Part shown: one piece after another, positions 1-64,000 of the stretch
How positions within the stretch are numbered: position 1 is the stretch's first letter
Layout: every line of letters begins with the position of its first letter
DNA from: Methanoregula sp.
GTDB lineage: Archaea > Halobacteriota > Methanomicrobia > Methanomicrobiales > Methanospirillaceae
Reading direction: 5' to 3'
Assembly (NCBI GenBank): GCA_030651815.1
Contig: JAUSBW010000271.1
Span: forward strand, 4,137 to 68,136
DNA length: 64,000 nt
Notes under the pieces: generated by a model
Seen by the model: the letters and a program-made list of their open reading frames with translations, nothing else
Database searches by the model: none
Told to the model about the DNA's origin: nothing
Position numbers and translations under genes: made by a program

Positions 1-146
1 AACGATATTTAATGTTTCCTCCTAAACACGCCGAAAATGCAGGACAATTGGTATCCGGGTGGTAAAAACCGGTTAAAACACGTAATCGCAGAAGATTGAT
101 ACGTGTGCCGGGCAATTGAACACATCAGGAACGGGGGTGAGAAAGA

Positions 147-335
147 ATGGTTAAAGTGATCTACGAAGGGGACGATTTCAAACGTATGTTAAGGACGGAT
201 TTGCAGAAACTTGAGCGTCTTGTCGAATCAAAAAAGGTTGGCATCTTTGAAGTGGACTATAAGGAAGGAAAGATCAAGGTGGAAATTAAAAAGAAGGGAA
301 ATGACATTGTTGTAAAACGCTTCAGGGCGACCTGA
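147..335 (+). CDS. hypothetical small protein (62 aa)
   Basis: Intact ORF with a purine-rich GGGGGTGAG stretch a few nt upstream of the ATG. K/E-rich product, no motif recognised. Confidence 0.3.
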   Translation: MVKVIYEGDDFKRMLRTDLQKLERLVESKKVGIFEVDYKEGKIKVEIKKKGNDIVVKRFRAT

Positions 336-441
336 TCTCATATTTTTGAGAGATTATCTGGTTATGCCCTGCAAGTACTGGAAAAAACGTACGTGTTTTA
401 ACAAAACGGGCTGAGATGGTTTTTAAAAGTCCAGAAAAAGA

Positions 442-831
442 TCAGATCTCTTTTTTGTAATCAGAGTGCACCTTTGGCATCTTCATCTTTTGTGCTTTCT
501 GGATCTTTTTTATGGTCTCTTCTCTGGTCCGGGTGACTTTTTCTTCTGCAGATAATCCGTTTCCTGATTCCTGTTCACCTGTTTTTTTTAAGGAAAGGAA
601 ATGTTGGTACTCTTCAGAAGAAATGCCGATCTTTTTCAGTTCAGTTCCTGTAAAAAAACCATGCATGTATTTTACATGGTGATCCGGGCATATGGGAAGT
701 GTACAGTCTCCTTCTGCTGTCTTCCCTGTTACCGGCAAAAGGGTACCGGTAACTTTTTCCGGCTGCCGGCATATGCAGCAGCGGTAGTGGTGTCTGCGTC
801 GGATTGCGTCAAATTCTGCACTGTCAGTCAT
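442..831 (-). CDS. hypothetical Cys/His-rich protein (129 aa)
   Basis: ORF with a CCICRQP...CTLPICPDHH Cys/His cluster suggesting zinc binding, and a Lys-rich tail. Family not recognised. Confidence 0.4.
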   Translation of the reverse strand: MTDSAEFDAIRRRHHYRCCICRQPEKVTGTLLPVTGKTAEGDCTLPICPDHHVKYMHGFFTGTELKKIGISSEEYQHFLSLKKTGEQESGNGLSAEEKVTRTREETIKKIQKAQKMKMPKVHSDYKKEI

Positions 832-892
832 ATTTGGTCTCTTTTTTTAACAACCTGAAGTTATCAGGATTTCAGAATCAGTCAAAACCGGA

Positions 893-967
893 TGCTGCTA
901 TGGGGATTCGAACCCCAGTCGCGAGCGTGAGAGGCTCGCATGATTGGCCGGACTACACTATAGCAGC
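893..967 (-). tRNA. tRNA-Glu (anticodon CTC)
   Basis: Minus-strand cloverleaf: acceptor GCTGCTA/TAGCAGC, D-loop AGTCCGGCCAA, anticodon stem CGAGC/GCTCG with loop CTCTCAC. T-arm TGGGG-TTCGAAT-CCCCA, discriminator A, CCA not encoded. Confidence 0.85.
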
Positions 968-1216
968 GCAATTGCCCAGTAATTTGGGTGATATTTTTAC
1001 TTATAGTTTATTACGTCCTTTATCATGTTCGTTACCGCTTCCATGCCATTCATTCCGTGAAATGGGTGCAATAACGTAAGGAATCTTCGTTACGGTTAAT
1101 TTTTTTATGAAATCTGTTTCTACCAGAACTTTATCGCTTCCACCCCTTGGAAAGTCACAAACGGTATCTCTTTTCCACAACAACTATATCTCGCACATGC
1201 GGCGATTAATATAGGA

Positions 1217-2329
1217 ATGAGTAGCCTTGAGGAACAGATTAAAGAGCTCGAGGATGAGCTTGTCAAAACCCCGTATAACAAGGCTACTTCCAAGCATATC
1301 GGACGGATAAAGGCAAAGATCGCACGTCTCAGGGACGAAGCGGTAAGCCGCGCGATGAAGGCCAGCGGGGGCGGCGAAGGTTTCAATGTCAAGAAGTCCG
1401 GTGATGCCACCGCGGTCCTTGTCGGGTTCCCTTCTACGGGTAAGAGTACGCTCCTGAACAAAATGACCGGCACGGATAGTGCGGTAGCGGCGTATGCCTT
1501 CACCACGCTCACCGTTGTTCCGGGTGCCCTTGAACATAAAGGGGCAAAGATCCAGATACTCGATATTCCCGGACTTATTGCCGGCGCCGCGATGGGCAAA
1601 GGCCGGGGCAAGGAAGTTATTGCCGTGGTCCGTGGGGCGGATATCATCATCATTCTCGTGGATGTCTTCAACGAGCGGCATTTCGATGTGCTCATCAAGG
1701 AACTCTACGATGCGGGTATCCGTATCAATGTGCCAAAACCGGACATCACCATCAAGAAATCCTCGCACGGAGGAATCCGGCTCAATGCGGTCGGCACCCT
1801 GGATCTCGAAATTGAAGAAGTCCGGTCTATCCTTGCCGAGAGTAAGATGATGAACGCAGATATCCTGATCCGTGGGAACGCAACACAGGATGATCTCATC
1901 GATGCGATACAGGGCAACCGCGTGTATGTTCCGGCGTTCATCGCGGTGAATAAGGTCGATCTCGTGGATAAGGAACGGTTCCTGGAGATCGAACATGACA
2001 TCGCAGAACGGTTCGGCAACCCGCCGCTCATGATATCAGCCCATGTCGGTTATCACATTGAGGAGACAAAAGATGCGATCTATGACAGTCTCGGTTTCAT
2101 CCGTGTCTATCTCAAACCCCATGGTGGCGAAGCGGATCTTGAAGAACCCCTCATTGTCAGGAAAGGCAGCACAATAGAGGATGTCTGTACCAAGCTCCAC
2201 CGCGAATTTGTCCAGAAGTTCCGCTATTCAAGGGTCTGGGGCAAATCAGTCAAGCACCCGGGGCAGAGGGTCGGGCTCTCCCACAAACTGATCGACAGCG
2301 ATCTGATCACAATCATTGTAGAGCACTGA
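1217..2329 (+). CDS. DRG/OBG-family GTP-binding protein with C-terminal TGS domain
   Basis: G1 GFPSTGKST, G3 ILDIPGLI, G4 NKVD. N-terminal KTPYNKATSKHIGRIKAKIARLR segment typical of DRG/Rbg1. TGS-like C-terminus. Confidence 0.9.
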   Translation: MSSLEEQIKELEDELVKTPYNKATSKHIGRIKAKIARLRDEAVSRAMKASGGGEGFNVKKSGDATAVLVGFPSTGKSTLLNKMTGTDSAVAAYAFTTLTVVPGALEHKGAKIQILDIPGLIAGAAMGKGRGKEVIAVVRGADIIIILVDVFNERHFDVLIKELYDAGIRINVPKPDITIKKSSHGGIRLNAVGTLDLEIEEVRSILAESKMMNADILIRGNATQDDLIDAIQGNRVYVPAFIAVNKVDLVDKERFLEIEHDIAERFGNPPLMISAHVGYHIEETKDAIYDSLGFIRVYLKPHGGEADLEEPLIVRKGSTIEDVCTKLHREFVQKFRYSRVWGKSVKHPGQRVGLSHKLIDSDLITIIVEH

Positions 2330-2604
2330 TCCCCTGAAAAAACCGGCCAGACCGCAACCTCTTTTTTCCCAGATCTGTTTAGAAAAATAAATTTTTGCCA
2401 AAAACCGGGTATGGTCTGTACTTGTACATAAAATTCCTGCAATCCCCGGTTTTACCATAACAGAGACGGGCACTACGGGAAAAGGGTGTGCGGTTTGAGA
2501 TCGTTGTGCCTTCAGGTTCATTCAGGTCAGGAGAAAAGAAGCAGCAATAACAACGATGAGCAGATTCGCGTTGCTTGTCGGTTTTCTTTGTTTTATTCTG
2601 TTTT

Positions 2605-3726
2605 TCACCGGGTACCCGGTTGAATAGCAGATTTGATGATCTCAAGCGGCGCTTCTGTTTTGATCCCGTACCCGGAGAAATGTGTCCGGGTGGCGGCATA
2701 TCCCGCAGCCCGGATACGTTCGAGAACGGTATGGATGTCCGGAGGAGAGCAATTCAGAATTTTTGCGATATGGTGATAATCGTAGAACGATGAGGTGGGG
2801 AGTTCTTCGATGCAGAGTTCGAGAAGTTTTTTGAGATCTTTTTTCGTGCCGGGTTCCAGAGTATTCAGCTGCTCCTGCATCTGGAGGAGCGTCTCGTAGT
2901 TCCGGATACTGCCAAGCCACAGGGGGCCGATGAATCCGAGTGGTTCATTGCAGTGCGGGCATGATACGGTGGGGGGAACCATGCCCGGATGCTCCTCCCG
3001 ATACGGGCATTTCGGGCACTGGAGGATGAACCCGATCTGCTTTAAGGTATTGTCCGCTGCACCAGCTCCCCGGAGTAACCGGAGGTGGAGCCGTACGAAA
3101 TGCTCGCGGGCATAACAGAACACTGGCTCAACACCCCGGTCGTACTTGACCGTCTCGCGGACAACAAACCCGAGCAGGATCCGGAGACCCACTTCACTAT
3201 GGTACTCGGTGTTTTGTGGTCGCGCGAAATACCTCCTTATTCCCGCTTTAAGGTGTGCTCCACAGAGAGGAGCCGTATCGGTAGCGGTGACAAAGAGAAA
3301 CCTGCGCGTACCCCGGATCGCCGCATCCACCACCATTGCCGGTGTGCCGAACGGATCGAGATCCACGGCATCAAACGATCGTTCCGAGAGCAGGGCGTTA
3401 ACATCCCGCTGCACAATCTCCACCGGCAGGTTCGCATGGCTCGCATTGTACGTGATCAGTTCGATTGCTTCGGGCTCACGGTCATTGATCGTAACTGGGA
3501 TGCCACATTCATTCAACACCCGCATCCCGCGTATGCCGGTTGCCCCCATGGCGTCGAGGTATTCGGAGGGTTTGAGAATCGAGAGCAGAAGCACGGTGGC
3601 ATCGCGGTTCAGTTCCATCCGCCGGTTGAAAAAGATCGGGGCCGACCCGGGAGGAAACTGTGTAGTATTGTCCTGAACCGGAATAAAAAACCGGGTTTTT
3701 CCTTCCGTTGCCTCAATTAGCTCCAT
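2605..3726 (-). CDS. trm1: tRNA (guanine(26)-N2)-dimethyltransferase
   Basis: 373 aa. N-terminal FFNRRMELNRD and a SAM-MTase core typical of Trm1. C-terminal Cys cluster CPKCPY...CPHC. Confidence 0.9.
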   Translation of the reverse strand: MELIEATEGKTRFFIPVQDNTTQFPPGSAPIFFNRRMELNRDATVLLLSILKPSEYLDAMGATGIRGMRVLNECGIPVTINDREPEAIELITYNASHANLPVEIVQRDVNALLSERSFDAVDLDPFGTPAMVVDAAIRGTRRFLFVTATDTAPLCGAHLKAGIRRYFARPQNTEYHSEVGLRILLGFVVRETVKYDRGVEPVFCYAREHFVRLHLRLLRGAGAADNTLKQIGFILQCPKCPYREEHPGMVPPTVSCPHCNEPLGFIGPLWLGSIRNYETLLQMQEQLNTLEPGTKKDLKKLLELCIEELPTSSFYDYHHIAKILNCSPPDIHTVLERIRAAGYAATRTHFSGYGIKTEAPLEIIKSAIQPGTR

Positions 3727-6115: not shown

Positions 6116-7159
6116 TTATGTGGTGCTATGATGCGATAAGAGTTTATGTATATCAATGGGAGGGCGCAGCACACCCGTTTCCGTGATGACTGCAGTCACC
6201 AGTTCCATTGGAGTAGCATCGAAGGCATAGTTCTTCACATGTGCTCCCTCGGGTACATAGGTGCGTCCGCCCATGATGGTCACCTCATCGCGTCCACGCT
6301 CCTCGATGATCACATCCTTCCCGGCGTTTTTTGGATCAAATGTGGAGAGCGGTGCGGCAACATAAAACGGGATATTGTGATGATGTGCACAGATGGCATG
6401 CATGTAGGTGCCGATCTTGTTAAAGACCGCATCGCGGGTGATGCGATCAGCCCCGACAACCACGACATCGATCGCTCCTTTGCGCATGAGGTGTGCAGCA
6501 GCGGAATCCGGGATCGTGGTCACGTCGATCCCATCACGTGCAAGTTCCCATGCGGTGAGCCGGGCACCCTGCAGGAGCGGGCGTGTCTCGCAGGAGATCA
6601 CTTTCACATTTTTTCCGGCCGATACTCCTGAACGTATAACCCCAAGTGCTGTGCCCCACGATGAGCAGGCAAGGGCTCCGGCATTGCAATGGGTAAGCAC
6701 CGTGCAGGTGTCGGGCAGAAGAGCGGCTCCGTGTTTACCGATCGCGTGGCAGCACGCGGTATCCTCGCGGGCGATTCCCTCTGCTTTGGCAATTGCCCGT
6801 AAGCAGGCTTCATTGCAGTCATGTGTGTGTGCCATCGCCCCAAGCACCCGGTCAATGCCCCATGCAAGGTTAATTGCAGTCGGACGGGTTGACCGAAGTA
6901 TGTCTGCATCCCTTTGCACTGCTGCCATAAATGATTTCAGATCTTTTCCATCTGCAAGCACAGCGGCAAGTGCTACGCCATATGCTCCTGCAACACCGAG
7001 CGCGGGAGCGCCGCGTATCTCCAGCCGACGGATTGCGGTTGCCAGCCTTTCGATGCTGCGGCATTCGACAATCGAGTACTCATTGGGAAGGAGCGTCTGT
7101 TCGATATAGTGGATGCTCATGTTCTCTGCATCCCACCAGAGGGTGGCAGTCTCATTCAC
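6116..7159 (-). CDS. mtnA: S-methyl-5-thioribose-1-phosphate isomerase / eIF-2B-like family protein
   Basis: N-terminal IEQTLLPNEY...AIRRLEIRGAPALGVAGAYG, matching the MtnA/eIF2B-related fold. 347 aa. Confidence 0.8.
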   Translation of the reverse strand: MNETATLWWDAENMSIHYIEQTLLPNEYSIVECRSIERLATAIRRLEIRGAPALGVAGAYGVALAAVLADGKDLKSFMAAVQRDADILRSTRPTAINLAWGIDRVLGAMAHTHDCNEACLRAIAKAEGIAREDTACCHAIGKHGAALLPDTCTVLTHCNAGALACSSWGTALGVIRSGVSAGKNVKVISCETRPLLQGARLTAWELARDGIDVTTIPDSAAAHLMRKGAIDVVVVGADRITRDAVFNKIGTYMHAICAHHHNIPFYVAAPLSTFDPKNAGKDVIIEERGRDEVTIMGGRTYVPEGAHVKNYAFDATPMELVTAVITETGVLRPPIDIHKLLSHHSTT

Positions 7160-8436
7160 GCGGATCGCGCCCTTACCGCATCGATATATGCCCGCATAGC
7201 TGCAGATCCTCCGGATGCTACACTATCCGGTATATCGCGGGGAGCGGTTGCAGTGCCTGCAACATAGATTCCGGGACGCAGGGTTGCAACCGTGTCCATG
7301 GCATCATGCACGGATTTGAAAAAACCGGTGGTTTCGAGGGAGATCCCGCACTTCACAGCAATGCCGGCAGCATTATCCGATGGGCCAATCCCAATCGAGA
7401 GCACCACAAGATCCGGGTGGAGGATGAGGACTTCTGAGGTTTCGGTGTTTTCCAGCTGAAGGATTAAACCGTTCCGGTCAGCGAGGATATCTGCGGGCAT
7501 ACCCCGCAGGAACCGGATCCCCAGTGCTTTTGCGCGCTCGTAATACTCCTCGTAGCCTTTGCCATATGCCCGGATGTCCATATAGCAGAGAGTGATCTCA
7601 ATTGCCGGCTGCTTCTCTTTGATGAGCATCGCGTTCTTCATTGCCTGCATACAGCAGATACACGAGCAGTAAGGTCGATCAATGGACATATCGCGTGAAC
7701 CTACACACTGGATGAACACAATGCTCTTTGGCACTGCCCCGTTGCTTAAGCGTTTGATCTTTCCCCCGGTAGGGCCGCTGGCATTGATCATCCGTTCCAG
7801 TTCGAGGCTGGTTATTACATCCGGCAGAATGAGGTGGCCGAACTGTTCTTTGATCCTGGCATCAAAGACCGCATAGCCGGTCGTAATCACGATACTTGCC
7901 GCATTGATGGTGATCTTCTTTCCTTCATCCTTGCGCAGTATCGCATTGGGGCCACAGGCATCATAGCAGAGTCCGCATTCAATGCAGTGTTCTGCATCCT
8001 TGACCACGATATCCGGAACAGCCTGTGCGTGGGGCTTGTAAATTGCTTTCCTTACGCCGATACCTGCATCAAACCGGTTATACACTTCAACAGGGCAGAT
8101 CTCAATACAGTCACCGCAGCCATTACAGAGTTCTGCGTCTACGTATCTCGGATGCTCTTTTATCGTGACCGTGAAATGCCCGACTTCTCCTTCGATCGTT
8201 TCAACTTCTGCGCAGGTATGGATGGTGATGAGCGGGTGGCGTGATACGTCTACCATCTTTGGGGAGAGGATGCACATCGAGCAGTCGTTTGTCGGGAATG
8301 TTTTGTCAAGCTGGGCCATATGGCCGCCAATACTCGGTTCGCGCTCGATCAGGTGCACCTGAATACCGTGACCTGCGATATCGAGCGCTGCCTGGATACC
8401 TGCGATACCAGCGCCGATGACTACCACATCACTCAT
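7156..8436 (-). CDS. HdrA-like FAD-dependent iron-sulfur oxidoreductase (short form)
   Basis: VVIGAGIAGIQAA dinucleotide fold, the HdrA signature DKTFPTNDCSMCIL, and ferredoxin motifs CNGCGDCIEICP and CIECGLCYDACG. Start placed at MSDVVVIG. Confidence 0.8.
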   Translation of the reverse strand: MSDVVVIGAGIAGIQAALDIAGHGIQVHLIEREPSIGGHMAQLDKTFPTNDCSMCILSPKMVDVSRHPLITIHTCAEVETIEGEVGHFTVTIKEHPRYVDAELCNGCGDCIEICPVEVYNRFDAGIGVRKAIYKPHAQAVPDIVVKDAEHCIECGLCYDACGPNAILRKDEGKKITINAASIVITTGYAVFDARIKEQFGHLILPDVITSLELERMINASGPTGGKIKRLSNGAVPKSIVFIQCVGSRDMSIDRPYCSCICCMQAMKNAMLIKEKQPAIEITLCYMDIRAYGKGYEEYYERAKALGIRFLRGMPADILADRNGLILQLENTETSEVLILHPDLVVLSIGIGPSDNAAGIAVKCGISLETTGFFKSVHDAMDTVATLRPGIYVAGTATAPRDIPDSVASGGSAAMRAYIDAVRARSA

Positions 8437-14607: not shown

Positions 14608-15024
14608 TTATTCCTGCACCACGCGGACCGGTGCCTGACTGAAATGCCGGTCGAAAGTATAGATCTCATCAATTCCCTGTTGTTCCATGACAACCAGTGC
14701 CAGGGCATCATTGATGCTGATGGAATATTTTTGTGCCAGCCGGGTACTTTCCCGGTAGTTGTCAGCTGAGACCGACTGGACAGTAATCGAGGGTTTTGAC
14801 AGGAGTGCGGAGAGGAGATCGCATGCAAACCCGGGACCCGCCGCATCTTCGAGGACATTTGCTACTTCGCTGAGATGTACGGTCGTCGTGGTGACATGTT
14901 CCCCGGTATTTACCCGCAGGAAAATTTCTTTTGCCGCAGTTTCTCTCTTTAAGACAGCATCCGGAAGGGCTGTTTTTGGCCTGAGGACGGCATAGATGAA
15001 TACGTTTGCATCAATAAACCGCAT
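14608..15024 (-). CDS. vapC: PIN-domain toxin
   Basis: N-terminal FIDANVFIY with the PIN Asp, C-terminal IYTFDRHF. Overlaps the upstream antitoxin ORF. Confidence 0.85.
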   Translation of the reverse strand: MRFIDANVFIYAVLRPKTALPDAVLKRETAAKEIFLRVNTGEHVTTTTVHLSEVANVLEDAAGPGFACDLLSALLSKPSITVQSVSADNYRESTRLAQKYSISINDALALVVMEQQGIDEIYTFDRHFSQAPVRVVQE

Positions 15025-15247
15025 CTTTTCTCAGTTCCTTGCGCAGTGCGTGATAATCGTCAAAATGCTTGCCTTCAACTTCGACCGCGTCAACAAATCG
15101 TGAAAGATCGGTATCAGCCGGGCGGATCTCAAGCCGGTCATCCTCATCGATGATCATGACGTTCTTTGTCTTTAACCGGTTCCGCCACGCTTTTGGCAGG
15201 ATGATCCGGCCCTGTGCATCAACCTGCTTAATCTCCACTTTTGTCAT
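15011..15247 (-). CDS. vapB: AbrB/SpoVT-type antitoxin
   Basis: VDAQGRIILPKAWRNRL swapped-hairpin motif. 78 aa, overlaps vapC by 14 nt. Confidence 0.8.
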   Translation of the reverse strand: MTKVEIKQVDAQGRIILPKAWRNRLKTKNVMIIDEDDRLEIRPADTDLSRFVDAVEVEGKHFDDYHALRKELRKDAVY

Positions 15248-15591
15248 AGTTCCCCATAATTACTGTGATTAACCAGAATATTAATTTTCCCCAATGCATA
15301 GGAACGGTTGTGATGAGCGGGAGTGAGATGGGAGCAAAAATGATTATTCGCTGACACTGGCTCAATTTCCTATACACCCAACAATAAGGGACATTCCTGT
15401 CATGCGTCTCTGGAGGTACTATGAGGGGTCCCTTCGCACCGATCCCTCTCTTAGTAAATGGACCCCAGCTTTTACCGGTTCCTCTCCCGCACGATCAGAT
15501 CGTGAGTATGTACCTTCCGGACCAGCCCGGCTACCTTGTCCCCAAATTTCCCAGTGATCACCTTAAATCCCAAAAAGGAATATTGCCATAC

Positions 15592-16365
15592 ATGGACGTT
15601 GATCTCCGCGATCACTTCACGGCCTTATGGCAGAACTATTTTCCCGGCACAGAACTGCCGATCACGTTTGAATTCAGGAAAGAATCAGGCACCGCCAAAA
15701 AAGTTCCCCCTCCGGATGGCTGGCGCTGTATCATCTGCCAGATCGGCCGGGTCAGGAACGGGACACCACTTGTTTTTGATGCCCGGTCAGTCACCTGCAA
15801 GGGTGGACTCATGTATACGGGCTATTCACATGAGCGACCACCAAATTTCCGGTACTTCCTCTCTCAAGGGAAACCGGGCGTTGTGGAAGGAGAGCGCTAT
15901 AAGCAAACGCCGGAGATGGTTGATGCATGGCAGAAGAATCTCATCCCCCTGCCCTCAGAGGGAAAGGATATCGTCTTCACCCGCTGGGATCAGCTGACCG
16001 AACAGGACAATCCCGAAGTGGTGATCTTCTTTGCCCGTCCTGAAGTCATGAGCGGGCTTTTCACGCTTGCGAATTTCGACCAGAGAGATCCGAACGGGGT
16101 CATCTGCCCTATGGGGGCCGGGTGCAGTTCCATCATCTATTACCCGTGGCTCGAACAGCAGAAGGTAAATCCCAAGGTCGTACTGGGCATGTTCGATCCT
16201 TCAGCCCGTCCCTGTGTACCGCTTGATATCCTGACGATGGCGTTTCCCATGAAGAAATTTGCCCGGGTTATCGGGTACATGGAGGAGAGTTTTCTGATCA
16301 CAAAGACATGGGATACGGTAAAAAAGAAGATTGAGCGGAGTGCAGCGCTCGGTCAGAAGAGCTGA
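15592..16365 (+). CDS. DUF169-like protein
   Basis: 258 aa counted from the internal ATG (MDVDLRDHF). Layout resembles DUF169/COG2043, recognised only loosely (PEVVIFFARPE, CPMGAGCSS). The upstream 57 codons of the track ORF look non-coding. Confidence 0.45.
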   Translation: MDVDLRDHFTALWQNYFPGTELPITFEFRKESGTAKKVPPPDGWRCIICQIGRVRNGTPLVFDARSVTCKGGLMYTGYSHERPPNFRYFLSQGKPGVVEGERYKQTPEMVDAWQKNLIPLPSEGKDIVFTRWDQLTEQDNPEVVIFFARPEVMSGLFTLANFDQRDPNGVICPMGAGCSSIIYYPWLEQQKVNPKVVLGMFDPSARPCVPLDILTMAFPMKKFARVIGYMEESFLITKTWDTVKKKIERSAALGQKS

Positions 16366-16454
16366 CCATTCTTATTCCCGGTACTTACCGGGTTTCTACA
16401 GCCTCGAATCATGCACTGGTTGTAATGGTTTTAAGTATTTACAATGTTTACAGC

Positions 16455-16661
16455 ATGATCATGTCAGCGGTAAAGCGGTTGCCGGTCTCCGAGAAAGTCT
16501 GGAAAGAGCTGGGGGCAATGAAGGGGGCAGGCCAGACCTATGACGATCTCCTTGAGGATATGATTGAACGGGTCAAGAAAGCCCGGCTTGATGAAGATGT
16601 GAAGATGTGGGAAAGCCGCCCGGATTCGGAGTACGTGTCCCTGTCGGAGATTAAGGATTGA
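16455..16661 (+). CDS. putative antitoxin of RelE-type pair
   Basis: Small acidic protein directly upstream of the RelE-like ORF and overlapping it by 4 nt. Architecture shared with the ORF at 24371. Confidence 0.5.
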   Translation: MIMSAVKRLPVSEKVWKELGAMKGAGQTYDDLLEDMIERVKKARLDEDVKMWESRPDSEYVSLSEIKD

Positions 16662-16948
16662 CCTTCGAAGTGAAGGTACGGAATACGGTTGATGCGTTTA
16701 TCGGTTCCGTACCGGAAAAATCCCGGCGCATCATCAGAAACGCTCTCCAGGGTCTTTGTGAGAATCCTTTTCCCGGGAGCGGCGGGGATCAGGAGAGACT
16801 GGTCTTACGGGGCGGCAGGGAGATATACCGGCTCCATATTGCCCGTACTTACACTGCATTCTATTCCATTGATGACGAGAACCGTATTGTCAGGGTCCAT
16901 GAGATTCTTCCCATTGAGCAGGCGCATAAGAAGTACGGGCGGTTGTAA
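16658..16948 (+). CDS. relE: RelE/ParE-superfamily toxin
   Basis: 96 aa, TTG start. C-terminal IYRLHIARTYTAFYSIDDENRIVRVHEILPIEQAHKKY resembles archaeal RelE. Confidence 0.7.
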   Translation: MTFEVKVRNTVDAFIGSVPEKSRRIIRNALQGLCENPFPGSGGDQERLVLRGGREIYRLHIARTYTAFYSIDDENRIVRVHEILPIEQAHKKYGRL

Positions 16949-17130
16949 TCAGCCACTTTTTATGGTACAAGCATTGATCCAGGTAGGGAGTGGAAGGTTA
17001 ATGGTTGTTTGACGTGAATTTTTCAGAAACAATTCTGAAAACATCCTCAATCAGTCACGAAATTGAATAGTGCGACAAATAAATAAAACCAGATTACAAT
17101 AACACACTATTATGATAAAGAGGGTTGACC

Positions 17131-18204
17131 ATGATTTCTCATTTAAAAATTGAACATTTTAAATCAATTGAATCTCTGGATATTGATTGTAATCAAATCA
17201 ATATTTTTATCGGTGAACCCAATACCGGAAAATCAAATATTCTTGAAGCGCTGGCACTTTTTACTTATATCGATCAAACATATGCTAGTGGTCATTCCGA
17301 ATTATCTTGGTATATCCGGTTTAAAGACCTCTCAAATCTGTTCACTGATGGGATCTTGGATCGAAATGTTATCCTTGAGATTAGAAGGCAGGATATTAAT
17401 AAGCAAATTACACTTGATGAATTAACGAAAGAATTTATTCAGAGAAAAATTAACGATATTACCGAAAAAATAACAATTATTCCAGAATCAGAATCCTATA
17501 AACTGTCAGATCAAGTAAAAATCAATGCTGACTTTGTAAATAAACGGGATATAAAATTTGATTTTTCCGGAAATCCCCATGGTGGGGGTGGTAATACTGG
17601 TAGTCCTTCAGGGATAAAATATTATTTTTATAAAGAATTTTCAGAGTACATTGATCTTACTTCAGATGCACTCAAACCGCCATTTGGTGAAAATCTTGTT
17701 GCCCTGATTCAAGCGCATAAACCACTCAGGAAAAAGGTCAGTGATATCCTTAAAGCTGAAGGATATCGCCTTCTTATAAAACCTCATGGGAAACAGATAG
17801 AGATTATCAAGGATATAGATGAAGTTTCATTTGGTTATCCCTATACAATTTTGTCGGATACTCTAAAACGTATTATTTTCTTCACGCTCGTGATCCAGTC
17901 TAATAAAAACGCCACTATTGTTCTCGAAGAACCAGAGTCCTGTACATTCCCTTATTACACAAAACATCTTGCCGAAATGATTGCACTTGATGACCAGAAC
18001 CAGTACTTCATTGCCACCCACAACCCGTATCTCCTTCGTTCAATCATCGAAAAAGCGCCCAAAGAAAAGGTGAATATCTTTGTGATTTCAATCAAAGATT
18101 ATCTTACACAAGTCTCCAAGATCGATTCGAAAAGGATCCCCGATCTCCTCGATTCCGACCCATTTTTTAACCTGTCGTTATTTATCGAGGAGGAGACGGG
18201 ATGA
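17131..18204 (+). CDS. ABC/SMC-type (AAA_15/21-like) ATPase
   Basis: IEHFKSI...IFIGEPNTGKSNILEAL (Walker A), signature-like LSDTLKR, Walker B IVLEEPE, H-loop IATHNP. AT-rich relative to flanks. A TTG at 17125 is an alternative start. Confidence 0.8.
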   Translation: MISHLKIEHFKSIESLDIDCNQINIFIGEPNTGKSNILEALALFTYIDQTYASGHSELSWYIRFKDLSNLFTDGILDRNVILEIRRQDINKQITLDELTKEFIQRKINDITEKITIIPESESYKLSDQVKINADFVNKRDIKFDFSGNPHGGGGNTGSPSGIKYYFYKEFSEYIDLTSDALKPPFGENLVALIQAHKPLRKKVSDILKAEGYRLLIKPHGKQIEIIKDIDEVSFGYPYTILSDTLKRIIFFTLVIQSNKNATIVLEEPESCTFPYYTKHLAEMIALDDQNQYFIATHNPYLLRSIIEKAPKEKVNIFVISIKDYLTQVSKIDSKRIPDLLDSDPFFNLSLFIEEETG

Positions 18205-18674
18205 TCATTGTCGAATGCAATAACGATGAATTTGTCCTTCTGGTGTTTGGGGTTGGAAAAAAGCGTATAAAACATGAGTCCTGTAAAGGTGATGTCCTTC
18301 GAAAAGCCGGAAAAAATTCACCGGTTCTGGCATTTATCGACGATGATCCCGATAGTGAACAACCGAGGGAATTGAGCAAATATTTAGTGACAAGTGAGGG
18401 AGAGACCCTAAAACATGGCATTCATTCCGATGATCCGCACAGGCGTATTATTATCGTTTCTCCATATCTTGAAAGATGGTTGCTTATTCGGGCAAAACGA
18501 AGCGGTATTAATCCAAAGACATATGGGTTGCCCGACGAACCAAAAGAATTGAAATCCATCCCACATCTGGAGAAAAACAAAGGATTTAAACAATTCGTAG
18601 AGGATTTAACAAAGAAAGATGCAGAAATCGCAAAAATTTTGAATTGGATCTCGGACTATCGGAGAATTGAATAA
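18201..18674 (+). CDS. small Toprim-like (DUF4435/OLD-nuclease-like) protein
   Basis: 157 aa, ATGA overlap with the ATPase. N-terminal IIVECNNDE (E-x3-D, as in the EGxxD motif) and AFIDDDPD (DxD) fit a Toprim metal-binding pattern. Fold not verified. Confidence 0.55.
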   Translation: MIIVECNNDEFVLLVFGVGKKRIKHESCKGDVLRKAGKNSPVLAFIDDDPDSEQPRELSKYLVTSEGETLKHGIHSDDPHRRIIIVSPYLERWLLIRAKRSGINPKTYGLPDEPKELKSIPHLEKNKGFKQFVEDLTKKDAEIAKILNWISDYRRIE

Positions 18675-18720
18675 TTATTTCGATTGAATAAAATCCTCTT
18701 TTTGGAATTTTACAATTTTT

Positions 18721-19446
18721 CTATTTCCTCGCAATCGTCACATACCCCGAGTGGCTCACCGAGGTAGAAGGCCGGGTCCCTCTCTTCGACCGGGTCATCT
18801 CCCGCTCGATCAGTTCATGGGTGTGCACCTCGCGGAACAGCGGAGTGGCTTCATCGACAACGATTGCCATCTGCTCCAGAAACGGGGTGTAACACGCAAG
18901 ATACCCCCCGGATCGCAGCAGTGAGAATGCATGTCTCACATGCTCGGGCAGGATCTGGAGATCAAGATGCACCACATCATACATGCCATCAGCGGTAAGG
19001 AAATCTGCAGCCACCGCTTCCACATTCGTGAGTTTCGACTCAGTGATGTTCTTCATCGCGAGCGTGGAAAACTCCGGCCGGATCTCGTAGGTCTTTACAG
19101 TCTTTGCCACGCCGCCAAAGTAGATCGCGGCAATCCCGCTGCCGGTACCGGCATCGAGAACATCGTCGTTGTGGTTCATGCCGGTATACGCGATGACGAG
19201 CCCGATATCCTTGGGCAGCATCGGGGCTCCTGACCGTTTACCATACGTGAAAAAATCCGTAGGGCGGGGGATGCGGATGGTGAACTGCGCACCGTTATGG
19301 GTGGTGACTGTATCGCCGCCCGATGCTCCTACCAACTGGTTAAGGTCAATTTGTCCTTTATCGGTACCGAGCGAGCCCGGCCCGGCCTTGACAAAAAATT
19401 CCCTGCCCTCTCCTACGAGCAGTACGCGATCGCCCGGTTCGATCAT
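18721..19446 (-). CDS. trmI: tRNA (adenine-N1)-methyltransferase TrmI/GCD14 family
   Basis: N-terminal beta-barrel segment (GDRVLLVGEGREFFV), SAM motif VLDAGTGSG. 241 aa. Confidence 0.9.
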   Translation of the reverse strand: MIEPGDRVLLVGEGREFFVKAGPGSLGTDKGQIDLNQLVGASGGDTVTTHNGAQFTIRIPRPTDFFTYGKRSGAPMLPKDIGLVIAYTGMNHNDDVLDAGTGSGIAAIYFGGVAKTVKTYEIRPEFSTLAMKNITESKLTNVEAVAADFLTADGMYDVVHLDLQILPEHVRHAFSLLRSGGYLACYTPFLEQMAIVVDEATPLFREVHTHELIEREMTRSKRGTRPSTSVSHSGYVTIARK

Positions 19447-23615: not shown

Positions 23616-24035
23616 TCAGAAACTAAGATTTTCAGGGATGGTTGCAGAACAACCATCGATCCGGTTGAAGTGTTCGCAGTTTCTGGTTACGATCTCACGC
23701 ATTCCCAATGATTGTGCGGTGGCGGCGATCAGGCAGTCGTTGAATTCAATTTTCCTCCCGGCTTTTGAGAGTTTTGCATAAATTCTTCCGCCGGCCATTG
23801 CAACAGATTCGTCAAGTTCAACGATCCGGACATAGGCAAGAAGTTCTTCGGTCTTTTTCATCGCATCATTCCGTGGAGAGAGTGCAGCACCTGCGCTGAG
23901 ATCGGCGATCGTGATAACTGAGATAATCCCGGTATTTTTTTCTTCAGAAAAACTTTCGAAGAGTTCAAAAGACTTCTGGGGTCCGTTCGTCCGGAGCACA
24001 TCAACGCAGATACTGGTGTCCAGAAAAAAGTTCAT
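23616..24035 (-). CDS. vapC: PIN-domain toxin
   Basis: MNFFLDTSICVDVL N-terminus with the PIN Asp, C-terminal IVTRNCEHF. ATGA overlap with the upstream antitoxin. Confidence 0.85.
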   Translation of the reverse strand: MNFFLDTSICVDVLRTNGPQKSFELFESFSEEKNTGIISVITIADLSAGAALSPRNDAMKKTEELLAYVRIVELDESVAMAGGRIYAKLSKAGRKIEFNDCLIAATAQSLGMREIVTRNCEHFNRIDGCSATIPENLSF

Positions 24036-24235
24036 AATGGTTCGATCGTTCTGGATTTTCGCAGGGTATCAACAAAGTCTGCACTATCCACATCATAACC
24101 CCAAGCTCCACAGAGTGATGTGATTGGTTTTTTGTCGATAATTTTTATGAAAACCTCATCACCGGTTTTTGTCGGAATTCCCGTCTCAAGTTCGAGGTGG
24201 AAGCCATCGATGACTTTTGCTTTTATTGTTGTCAT
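24032..24235 (-). CDS. vapB: small antitoxin (DUF104/AF2212-like)
   Basis: 67 aa. MTTIKAKVIDGFHLELE...GDEVFIKI resembles the DUF104-type antitoxin beta-barrel. Translationally coupled to vapC. Confidence 0.65.
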   Translation of the reverse strand: MTTIKAKVIDGFHLELETGIPTKTGDEVFIKIIDKKPITSLCGAWGYDVDSADFVDTLRKSRTIEPL

Positions 24236-24370
24236 ACCGGATACCGTACACTACGTATCACGCCCATTGCCATTAAGATTTGTGCGAATGGACGGGGTTT
24301 GCGAATTATACGTGAAGCACAGGTTTATTTTTAAAAGGACAAAAGGTACATTTAGACTAAAAAGGAGAAT

Positions 24371-24652
24371 ATGACCATGGCAAAGAACACCACCCCTCTT
24401 ACCGAGAAAGTACTCGTTTCGACGGACACCAAACAAGCCCTGATGTCTATCAAGGAGCCGGGGGAACGGTACGGGGATGTGATTGGCCGGGTGTTGCAGG
24501 ACCGGAAGCGTCATGACTTCATTGCACACCTGGACAAGATCGCAGAGGAAGGAGAATTCGTTCCGCTTGACAGCGATCCCGAATACGCAAGCCTGAAAAA
24601 AGAGATGCGCCATGACAGTAAACATCGACAAGCTGGCGCTGCAGTACGTTAA
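24371..24652 (+). CDS. putative antitoxin of RelE-type pair
   Basis: 93 aa, upstream of and overlapping the RelE-like ORF. Same architecture as 16455-16661. Confidence 0.5.
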   Translation: MTMAKNTTPLTEKVLVSTDTKQALMSIKEPGERYGDVIGRVLQDRKRHDFIAHLDKIAEEGEFVPLDSDPEYASLKKEMRHDSKHRQAGAAVR

Positions 24653-62205: not shown

Positions 62206-64000
62206 TCAGGCGTTGCATCCGATCTCCCTTGCCTTCTCCCTCACCCCCCTCCCGTAACAATGCTCACACAACTTCACCCCAGCCTCCCGGTCAATCCACT
62301 CAGCTCTCACCAACCCACATACCGAACACTTCCCCACATCCGCAGTAACCCGCTCACACCGGGAAGCAACCACCGTCCCCGGCAATGGAACTAAAGCCAT
62401 CTGCTCAACCTTCACCGCCTCATTGAAACACGAGCGGCACACCCGCCGGGCTTCCTGCTTATCCTTTGACCGGGCTCTACGCTCATTGGTATATTTTTCA
62501 ATGAACCAGGAGCCTTTCCTCCCGCAGACATAACACGCGGTCTTTGGTTCCGAAGATTCGAGTTTCTTGTAATCCCGAACATCAATGGACCGGGCCGGTT
62601 CTGGTTTTTCAGCAACGGGTTCTGTTTTCAGCACACTTTCAGCATCTTTCGTACGGCTGCTGAAAGAACCCGGGGCGGAATTTGCCACCGGTTTACCCAA
62701 TTGTGCAGTTCCGGGCAGAGATCGTTTTTCGTTTTCAGCAGATCGCAGATTATGCAGATACTGAGATGAATTCATTTCAGATTTCAAAACACCTGCATTA
62801 TTCCGGTTTTGCTGAAAACCACCTTCTCTTAGTACAGAATTATTTGTACAATCATCTCCTTTGTTGGAATCGGGACCGCAGGAAGCAGCGATCTCATTTT
62901 CAGCAGTTGCTGAAAAACTGCTGAAACCCTGCTGAAACTGCTGAAAATGACCAGCATCATCATCATCGTTCTTCGGATTGCGGTCAAGCCAGCATGCTCC
63001 GCCGTTCTTCCACTGCCGGTAGAGCTCCCGGTCCCATAAAAACGCTTCGGTCCTGCGGCGGACCGAATATCCGTCAGTCTCGGTTACGGTCACCGTCCGG
63101 TCAGTGAATGAAAGGGCCGGGCATTTTTCGAGAAGCCCCGTATAGTTCCTGCCCCGGCTGTCGTAGCCTTTCACCGTTTTGTAAATGCAGGAGTAGGACC
63201 AGCCGGTGAGCCGTTGCAGGTCCTGGATGGTGAATTCCGTCAGAACCGCCTTCTCGATGGTTACAAGCAGGTCCGACTCTTTCTTTGTCATCTTCGATTC
63301 CTGCCCCCCCGCAGTTCCGTTCAGGAGCGTAAAGACTTCAGTTGCCGCAGCGAAATCCGCTTCATCCGCGTACACGCAGAGCGTCCCGTCACTACCGGTC
63401 TTCTGCTGTCGCTGCATGAAGAAGAGGGCCGCATGGCTCTTGATCAGATCGTAGAGCATGTCGGGATTGCGCCGGTTGCTGATTGTCTGGAACCGGATCT
63501 GTGTTGAAAAGGGAATGATCACCCAGATCATCTGCTCGTGCAGGATCTCCCAGATCTCCTTACAGACTGCCAGTTCAGGAGACTCCTCTATGAATGTGTC
63601 CGGGTCCTGTCCCTCCTTCTCCTGCTTTGATGCGAGAACGCGGGCATCCTGATCGGCAGACTCATCAATCCAACAGGTCAGCATCCGGTTCATCACCTGG
63701 TCGTCTCCGGTCCCTTCCTTCTTTGAAATCCACCAGACGCACCGCTCTGGAATCGTGCAGACCCGCGAGGTCAGATCCTTTGTAACAGTAGTGTGTGTGA
63801 TCGGTTCGTTGAAGTTTGAGGTGGCAGACTTCAGGATCTCCTGAATCCCGTCCGACAACTCGGTATCATCACTCATAAGTACCGTGCGGGGCCGGAGATC
63901 TTTCATATAGTAAAGAGCCTTGTTGCTCACTGTGCCATTTACTTTATACCGGTCCGGGACCTGCTGCATCATCTTCTTAAACGCGTGCGTCTTCCCCTTG
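62206..64000 (-). CDS. P-loop NTPase, replication-initiator/helicase-like, with wHTH and C-terminal zinc ribbons (5' end outside window)
   Basis: The frame stays open upstream of the track ATG to the window edge and reads ...KGKTHAFKK (Walker A-like GK[ST]). Walker B-like TVLMSDD. C-terminal CYVCG...CRSC and CSVCG...CEHC. Confidence 0.55.
   Translation of the reverse strand, partial: KGKTHAFKKMMQQVPDRYKVNGTVSNKALYYMKDLRPRTVLMSDDTELSDGIQEILKSATSNFNEPITHTTVTKDLTSRVCTIPERCVWWISKKEGTGDDQVMNRMLTCWIDESADQDARVLASKQEKEGQDPDTFIEESPELAVCKEIWEILHEQMIWVIIPFSTQIRFQTISNRRNPDMLYDLIKSHAALFFMQRQQKTGSDGTLCVYADEADFAAATEVFTLLNGTAGGQESKMTKKESDLLVTIEKAVLTEFTIQDLQRLTGWSYSCIYKTVKGYDSRGRNYTGLLEKCPALSFTDRTVTVTETDGYSVRRRTEAFLWDRELYRQWKNGGACWLDRNPKNDDDDAGHFQQFQQGFSSFSATAENEIAASCGPDSNKGDDCTNNSVLREGGFQQNRNNAGVLKSEMNSSQYLHNLRSAENEKRSLPGTAQLGKPVANSAPGSFSSRTKDAESVLKTEPVAEKPEPARSIDVRDYKKLESSEPKTACYVCGRKGSWFIEKYTNERRARSKDKQEARRVCRSCFNEAVKVEQMALVPLPGTVVASRCERVTADVGKCSVCGLVRAEWIDREAGVKLCEHCYGRGVREKAREIGCNA
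62607..62946. repeat. iteron-like array of the 8-mer TGCTGAAA / TTTCAGCA (11 copies)
   Basis: TTTCAGCA at 62607, 62626, 62637, 62733, 62898. TGCTGAAA at 62658, 62810, 62908, 62919, 62930, 62939. The last four are spaced 11, 11 and 9 nt. 62898-62915 forms an inverted pair. Confidence 0.7.

Follow-up and report, generated by a model that had tools for sequence, protein, structure and literature searches.

A compact OLD-type ABC ATPase and a small putative nuclease form a candidate two-gene conflict module shared by archaea and bacteria

What is a short, AT-rich pair of overlapping genes doing in the genome of a methanogen, and does it belong to one of the anti-virus systems that already have a name? 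The question is raised by a stretch of 64,000 nucleotides from Methanoregula sp. (contig JAUSBW010000271.1, positions 4,137 to 68,136 of the forward strand; hereafter the window), in which a gene for an ATP-binding cassette (ABC) ATPase of 357 residues is followed by a gene for a protein of 157 residues. A preliminary description, made from the letters of the window, had read the second protein as a half-size, Toprim-like partner of the first, and had suggested an anti-virus or abortive-infection role. The reading that I favour, with somewhat more confidence than doubt, is that the pair is a self-contained and horizontally mobile conflict module of this type, composed of an OLD-type ABC ATPase and a nuclease encoded in trans.

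The ATPase and its small partner are strictly paired across phyla, and they co-evolve. The preliminary description had named a lack of synteny elsewhere as one of the results that would speak against a joint module, and the opposite was found. A pattern scan over one genome per GTDB species gave 32 loci, 30 of them with informative upstream DNA, and in all 30 the next gene upstream, in the same orientation, encodes a homologue of the window ATPase (phmmer E 1e-20 to 1e-85), as it does in five out of five close loci. At 26 of 37 junctions the two genes share an NTGA overlap, and at four a TAATG overlap. Pairwise distances between the ATPases are correlated with those between the partners (Mantel r = 0.89, p <= 5e-4), and a metagenomic protein of 277 residues (P0034) is an in-frame fusion of the C-terminal half of the ATPase to a full partner. 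Across 35 loci, no gene other than the pair is common. Four close relatives of the window have the same overlapping pair, while a fifth copy is located elsewhere and has a broken ATPase; in three of the four the trmI/NAC/PUA/DHH neighbourhood is that of the window, with different intervening genes. As a separate observation, in the protein P0121 (227 residues) a short piece of the ATPase and the C-terminal half of the partner are combined with an unrelated N-terminus.

The distribution of the pair is wide and patchy and, as sampled, archaea-rich without being archaea-specific. Nineteen of the 32 loci are archaeal (Methanoperedens, ANME-2c and other Methanosarcinales, Methanothrix, Thermoplasmatota, Hydrothermarchaeota, Thermococci, Bathyarchaeia, Thaumarchaeota and Thermoproteota), and the other 13 are bacterial (Planctomycetota, Acidobacteriota, Cytophagales, Peribacteria and Woesebacteria).

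The larger protein belongs, as an ABC ATPase of the AAA_15/AAA_21 type, to the OLD/PARIS/Gabija/AbiL group. It matches Pfam AAA_15 with 47.7 bits (cut-off 32.1) and AAA_21 with 39.3 bits (cut-off 27), and possesses a Walker A motif, GEPNTGKSN (residues 29–37), a signature-like motif, LSDTLKR (residues 241–247), a Walker B/D-loop, IVLEEPE (residues 263–269), and an H-loop, ATHNP (residues 295–299, with H297). These motifs, all listed in the preliminary description, are read directly from the translation and are kept across 31 homologues of 319–363 residues, which show 33–45% identity between phyla and a variable middle insert. The protein stops about 60 residues past the H-loop, without a fused domain, and its N-terminus has weak similarity to RecF, RecN and Rad50; its sequence cluster is named 'AAA family ATPase'. 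I propose that it is the sensor or regulator subunit of the pair.

Among the PADLOC models, the window ATPase best matches HEC-01A (63.5 bits, E = 4e-18), the ABC ATPase of Hma-embedded candidate 01 (HEC-01), in which it is associated with the DUF4276/TOPRIM protein HEC-01B (Payne et al., bioRxiv 10.1101/2024.01.29.577857). Other models score close behind: ATPase-Toprim_I-B (61 bits), NsnB (54 bits, in a full-length but weak alignment), AbiLi (50.5 bits), AriA (49 bits) and GajA (42 bits). For ten family ATPases from other phyla the top model varies (NsnB, AbiLi, AriA, HEC-01A or PDC-M07A), and the family scores 45–80 bits on NsnB, AriA, AbiLi, HEC-01A and GajA with no consistent winner. Because these scores are similar and modest, and because the top model varies, the ATPases form, on this profile-based classification, a clade of their own among the OLD-type ABC ATPases, outside every modelled family. 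The NCBIfam models of the retron Eco8 effector, MAD3 and RecF are matched far under their cut-offs (for MAD3, 40 bits versus 420), and the locus proteins have no Pfam match to DUF262 or DUF3696.

The small protein is not matched by any Pfam, NCBIfam or PHROG model, and by a single PADLOC model, mad4, at E = 0.0045. A word-indexed search found 15 close clusters only. When a profile was run against 1.84 billion representatives, 822 clusters were retrieved at E <= 1e-3, 377 of them at E <= 1e-10 (clusters being defined at 50% identity); the members are named 'hypothetical protein', or unnamed, in the source databases. Since nearly all of them are 150–160 residues long, the partner, rightly described as small, has the normal length for its family (∼155 residues) and is not a truncation of something larger. 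Its motifs IIVECNNDE (residues 2–10) and AFIDDDPD (residues 44–51) are also listed in the preliminary description. Across 124 diverse members E5 and E91 never vary, and conservation is at least 90% at C6, D9, H25, D47, D49, P50, P88 and W93. The protein is laid out as an N-terminal alpha/beta domain of catalytic type (residues 1–100) and a C-terminal helical domain (residues 101–157). C6 (18216–18218) comes directly after the invariant Glu and H25 (18273–18275) is at the end of strand 2; these two residues may provide an extra metal or catalytic ligand.

Judging by these conserved acids, the small partner is a probable metal-dependent nuclease effector, which raises the question of its fold. 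An AlphaFold2 (AF2) model generated from a deep alignment has a predicted local distance difference test score (pLDDT) of 97.3 and a predicted template modelling score (pTM) of 0.90; a model obtained with 12 close sequences was poor (pLDDT 71) and was discarded. The order of elements in the model is b1(2–4)-a1-b2(23–25)-a2-b3(42–47)-a3-hairpin(61–75)-b(81–86)-a(90–100), followed by the helical tail. The acids are located at strand ends: b1 is followed by E5 and D9, b3 leads into D47-x-D49, and E91 comes directly behind the last strand. Toprim-type two-metal nucleases place their acids in this way, and the partner would therefore most likely cleave RNA or DNA.

The Toprim signature, a Glu directly after strand 1 and a DxD directly after strand 3, also covers DUF4276 and RloB, and both Mad4/DUF4276 and RloB have been assigned to the Toprim superfamily (PMC12065111). 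E5, D47 and D49 are placed in this manner, and the secondary structure order of the model fits a Toprim domain, a three-layer alpha/beta fold for which the sheet order 2-1-3-4 is characteristic. By eye, the order of motifs in the small protein also resembles that of the type HEC-01B/DUF4276 protein (VEC versus LLEE, H-x-x-GKG versus FEGKQD, IDDDPD versus MRDQD, and SP-x-LE-x-W versus ACRELE-x-F). At E <= 0.01, PADLOC models gave 15 matches over the 124 members, for ∼1.2 expected by chance, and 11 of these are to mad4 (six members, weak, best E = 2e-3), AbiLii (four members, best E = 3e-4) and NsnC (one member). The NCBIfam MAD4 model is weakly matched by three of the 124 (best E = 2e-4), and the family consensus matches mad4 at E = 1.3e-3, a better value than the E = 0.018 that a genuine DUF4276 protein reaches on this model. 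Weighing all this against the contrary results given next, I consider it likely, if well short of certain, that the small protein is a Toprim-type (DUF4276/RloB-like) nuclease; the remainder of the probability goes to another acidic-cluster nuclease fold, or to something else.

A number of results weigh against the Toprim assignment. Foldseek found no significant match for the AF2 model (best E = 0.27 in the PDB and 0.11 in BFVD), with no Toprim protein in the top 50 and with flavodoxin- or receiver-like sandwiches as the best non-significant matches. Profiles of the whole family and of its N-terminal domain, searched against PDB sequences, retrieved only spurious coiled-coil and designed TIM-barrel matches. 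Comparison by hhalign with the HEC-01B sequence and with a 30-sequence DUF4276 alignment, a narrow one with an effective sequence number (Neff) of 2.8, was not significant in local or global mode (E = 0.2), and 'LE-x-aromatic' was the sole motif aligned to DUF4276. A DUF4276 profile run by hmmsearch over the family gave E > 0.4 in every case, the family consensus has no significant match in Pfam, and none of the 124 members matches Pfam Toprim, DUF4276, RloB or DUF4435. The small protein also has a Cys after the catalytic Glu (E-C), where the usual Toprim has E-G. The Toprim-like pattern proposed in the preliminary description therefore stands for the motifs, the secondary structure order and the weak mad4, AbiLii and NsnC matches, but finds no significant echo in Foldseek, PDB profiles or hhalign, and the proposed likeness to DUF4435 and AriB is lost, as no similarity is detectable in any of the 124 members. 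The Foldseek result is weak negative evidence, because known Toprim domains, those of AriB, OLD and GajA, can be superposed over just 20–26 C-alpha pairs.

Could the small protein instead be a metal-dependent nuclease of another Rossmann-like fold, PIN-like or distinct, in a module that works alike? Such a fold would suit a high-confidence model with no significant Foldseek neighbour and with flavodoxin- or receiver-like sandwiches as its best sub-threshold matches, the lack of a profile-profile signal to DUF4276, and the E-C motif with its conserved C6 and H25; PIN and NERD effectors are also known partners of ABC ATPases, and the one NsnC match is to a protein with a PIN-like N-domain. I nevertheless regard this as unlikely, given that the Glu after strand 1 and the D-x-D after strand 3 are the Toprim signature, that the recurrent weak matches are to mad4 and AbiLii and not to PIN families, and that the Foldseek miss carries little weight.

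It is about equally improbable that the pair is a divergent member of a named system, of which HEC-01 is the most plausible, with AbiL or MAD3-MAD4 as alternatives. HEC-01 has the same architecture, with overlapping genes for an ABC ATPase and then a partner of less than 200 residues, and the same E ... DxD ... LE-x-aromatic order; its ATPase model is the top PADLOC match in the window; some copies of the pair, at four family loci, adjoin DUF499 genes, and HEC-01 was found in an Hma context; the weak mad4 and AbiLii matches can be read in the same direction. However, the HEC-01B models are matched neither by the 124 members nor by the consensus, while a true HEC-01B matches nine of them, and the even ATPase scores across NsnB, AriA, AbiLi, HEC-01A and GajA do not single out HEC-01A. 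Both proteins are shorter than their counterparts (∼330–357 versus 395 residues for the ATPase, ∼155 versus 192 residues for the partner), and the identity to the type HEC-01A is local (27% over 78 residues by BLASTP). HEC-01 was therefore rejected as a label for the pair. The MAD3-MAD4 and AbiL alternatives fare no better: the MAD3 score is far under its cut-off, no other mad genes are present, and Pfam RloB and DUF4276 are unmatched.

The conflict-module reading draws further on composition and context. The preliminary description had called the pair AT-rich and its context suggestive of an anti-virus or abortive-infection module; the AT-richness holds, and the context is mobile or defence-like. 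The guanine-plus-cytosine (GC) content is 0.32–0.42 over 17000–18800 and 0.51–0.56 on either flank, with 0.369 for the gene pair and 0.499 for the whole window. All close relatives show the same dip, as do 22 of the 27 diverse loci; in the Methanoregula-like relatives it reaches 17–22 points under the flanks. Besides the toxin-antitoxin (TA) genes next to the pair in the window, a DUF499 gene lies directly downstream of it in four archaeal loci (L010 4090–6210, L011 4465–5412, L013 455–1399 and L014 1399–3942). DUF499 is read here as the ATPase of Hma systems. The 'Hma-embedded candidates' take their definition from the Hma setting (Payne et al., bioRxiv 10.1101/2024.01.29.577857), and the adjacency suggests that the pair can be embedded in Hma-like systems.

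One copy is carried by a provirus. The phage collection gave a single match, to gp15 and gp16 of Geoglobus ahangari pleomorphic virus 1, an integrated pleolipovirus, the ATPase being 38% identical to that of the window (E = 2e-79) and the partner 28% identical (E = 6e-21). Since the pair is found in a pleolipovirus provirus, competition between viruses in hyperthermophilic archaea is suggested. The paper describing this virus says nothing on gp15 and gp16. In the viral locus (L041, BK065157.1, 5020–7174) a winged-helix regulator gene stands on either side of the pair, and at a distance of 2.5 kb there is a gene for a RelE/ParE toxin, an echo of the RelE neighbour in the window. In PLSDB plasmids, tblastn of the small protein and of the consensus found no match, and the ATPase matches found there were rejected as unrelated larger ATPases without the partner.

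Two observations concern the related loci. In L002 the ATPase is split into three open reading frames (ORFs) and is thus a likely pseudogene; the contig also contains SLFN-g3 helicase genes in fragments, a gene for a D12 methyltransferase and one for a DUF6996/DUF6997/DUF7226 protein (56–3175 and 6940–8001), and looks like a decaying defence island. In three others, a divergent gene for a helix-turn-helix (HTH) protein of 284–288 residues lies directly upstream of the pair (L003 4363–5217, L004 225–1079 and L005 5956–6822), with weak or faint HTH_27/PadR Pfam matches, where the window has a RelE/ParE cassette; this protein may regulate the pair.

Three points count on the other side. Scans of IMG/VR with several patterns gave no confirmed relatives. 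The pair occupies the same chromosomal position in four Methanoregula-like genomes; it has therefore been kept vertically within this lineage, which is compatible with a host function. Lastly, HEC-01 gave no protection in E. coli assays (bioRxiv 10.1101/2024.01.29.577857), so that the nearest architectural analogue is itself without functional proof. The last two of these points, together with the weak RecF/RecN/Rad50 likeness of the ATPase N-terminus, the annotation of AAA_21 as a putative AbiEii-type toxin domain and the TA cassettes as neighbours, might suit a housekeeping role (RecF/Rad50-like DNA repair, or RNA processing) or a selfish, TA-like addiction cassette with no anti-virus function, but this is the least probable of the explanations considered, in view of the patchy spread over very distant archaeal and bacterial phyla, a GC content 13–22 points under that of the host flanks, surrounding genes that vary even between close relatives, the pseudogenised L002 copy within a defence-like island, and the provirus-borne copy.

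Turning to the locus itself, the two ORFs and their ATGA overlap are present in the ORF list and in the sequence as first described (Table 1). The ATPase ORF ends at 18204 and has an alternative TTG start at 17125, but the ATG at 17131 coincides with the gene start of the homologues in four related loci when these are aligned. The conserved A/T-rich block upstream probably includes the archaeal promoter of the operon, with a TATA-like element, and the GAGGG element is probably the ribosome-binding site of the ATPase gene.

Table 1. Coordinates of the gene pair and of associated sequence elements in the window.
Feature	Position	Strand	Remarks
ABC ATPase gene	17131..18204	+	357 aa from ATG; Pfam and PADLOC matches; motifs kept in 31 homologues
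Small partner gene	18201..18674	+	157 aa; family conservation, AF2 model, weak mad4/AbiLii/NsnC matches
ATGA start/stop overlap (translational coupling)	18201..18204	+	Read from sequence
GAGGG Shine-Dalgarno-like element	17120..17124	+	6 nt 5' of the ATPase ATG; position kept in relatives
Internal ribosome-binding site GAGGAGGAG	18187..18195	+	Within the ATPase 3' end, 5-13 nt ahead of ATG 18201
A/T-rich upstream block ..ATAAAA..AGAT.GCAATAAC	17071..17104	+	Invariant columns in an alignment of five related loci
Perfect inverted repeat, 9-bp arms, 4-nt spacer	17020..17041	.	Upstream of the conserved promoter block

The pair lies, as had been noted, between a TA pair and trmI: upstream are an antitoxin gene and a ParE/RelE toxin gene with a ParE_toxin match (16425–16948, + strand), and downstream, on the - strand, a gene for a GCD14/TrmI-like methyltransferase and NAC. 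The upstream TA pair is part of a small variable island (14608–15247 on the - strand, 15421–16365 and 16425–16948 on the + strand), which besides the antitoxin and the ParE/RelE toxin encodes a PIN toxin, an AbrB/MazE-like antitoxin paired with it, and a DUF169 protein; close relatives hold other genes in this place. A second GC dip, to 0.415–0.45, is present in the window at ∼23800–24400, with surroundings of 0.5–0.6.

The palindrome reported upstream of the pair, TTTTCAGAA-ACAA-TTCTGAAAA, is exact, and the chance of one such 9+4+9 repeat within the 182-nt spacer is ∼1.4%. It is however not conserved, being absent from all four related loci checked (L001, L002, L003 and L005); it is thus specific to the window among these loci, was for this reason rejected as an operator, and is probably not part of the module. 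Two more perfect inverted repeats with 9-bp arms are found within the ATPase ORF, at 17180–17204 and at 17743–17767, the latter terminator-like with a T-rich tail, making three in a 1.77-kb AT-rich segment where 0.23 are expected. Far from the pair, at 62897–62925, overlapping perfect 9-bp inverted repeats are clustered (TTTTCAGCAGTTGCTGAAAAACTGCTGAA), one arm of which, TTTTCAG, is similar to the palindrome arm.

How might the conflict module function? The genes would be co-transcribed from their own promoter and are translationally coupled, from which a fixed stoichiometry of the two proteins would follow. By analogy with the models put forward for PARIS, Septu and Menshen, the ATPase would oligomerise through its ABC head, and the oligomer would keep the small protein inactive, probably by way of the partner's C-terminal helical domain, residues 101–157 being a likely docking or dimerisation element. 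An infection cue, either a viral signal or the loss of another defence, would be sensed by the ATPase as a change in its nucleotide state, and ATP binding or hydrolysis would then free or activate the partner. The activated two-metal nuclease might cut RNA, such as tRNA-like targets, or DNA, leading to growth arrest or to destruction of the invader.

At ∼1.5 kb, and with two unusually small subunits (∼330 and 155 residues), the pair is a widespread and sharply defined candidate module, whose compactness suits a minimal study of how an OLD-type ABC ATPase gates a nuclease encoded in trans. The Pfam, NCBIfam, PHROGs and PADLOC libraries miss its effector side, and with models for both genes, hundreds of families now labelled 'hypothetical protein' would gain an annotation. 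Archaeal immunity outside CRISPR and restriction-modification is poorly charted, and in about one third of archaeal genomes no other known system is seen (PMC12988326). A more ambitious proposal, which I put forward only tentatively and hold to be doubtful, is that the 155-residue partner founds a new nuclease family, be it the most compact Toprim effector or a novel fold, wedded to a compact ATPase clade, and that the two make up an uncatalogued, archaea-rich defence system of at least 800 clusters that rides archaeal viruses.

The preliminary description did not recognise the pair, seen as a compact archaeal form, among described systems. This is correct in that no named system's models claim it, but the bacterial loci remove the restriction to archaea, and an ABC ATPase with a Toprim-type partner in trans has already been described in PARIS (DUF4435), AbiL (RloB), MADS3-4 (DUF4276) and HEC-01 (DUF4276). 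With PARIS the pair has in common an AAA_15/21 ABC ATPase and a candidate Toprim-type effector in trans, the co-evolution of the two, an occasional fusion (AriAB there, P0034 here) and carriage on viral or satellite elements. In contrast, AriB is a Toprim tRNA nuclease of ∼300 residues with DUF4435, a signal that the ∼155-residue partner lacks, and AriA has ∼480 residues with coiled-coil inserts, compared to ∼330 residues for the ATPase here, which AriA models match partially (49–69 bits). PARIS was therefore rejected, as there is no DUF4435/AriB match in the small protein or in its 124 relatives.

MADS3-MADS4, a submodule of the methylation-associated defence system (MADS), and AbiL also associate an ABC ATPase with a small protein, of DUF4276 or RloB type, and of all families only MADS4 and AbiLii give recurrent, if weak, hidden Markov model (HMM) matches with the small protein. 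These remain at E 1e-3 to 5e-3 for mad4, and no methyltransferase or other mad gene is linked to the pair. MADS, a multi-gene locus with a methyltransferase and mad1-8, was rejected on the MAD3 score and because two genes only are conserved, and AbiL on the lack of a Pfam RloB (PF13707) match, with the AbiLii model found in few members. Membership in DUF4276 (PF14103), MAD4 or HEC-01B does not hold at the level of the family: none of the 124 members matches Pfam DUF4276 or a HEC-01B model, and the mad4 and MAD4 matches are few and weak. OLD (class 1) and Gabija GajA (class 2) possess the same clade of ATPase, and the proposed E/DxD metal-site logic is theirs too; there, however, the Toprim domain is fused to the ATPase C-terminus, whereas here the nuclease-like domain is a separate protein of 155 residues. 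Gabija was rejected as the ATPase bears no fused domain, and as neither a GajB-type, UvrD-like helicase nor a conserved third gene is linked to the pair across the 35 loci. Menshen (NsnABC), which unites a ParB-like DUF262 protein (NsnA), an ABC ATPase with DUF3696 (NsnB) and NsnC, was rejected on the modest NsnB score, the missing DUF262 and DUF3696 matches and, again, the lack of a conserved third gene. As the pair falls outside the models of each named system, it is best described as a family-level variant of the ABC-ATPase and trans-nuclease kind that these systems represent.

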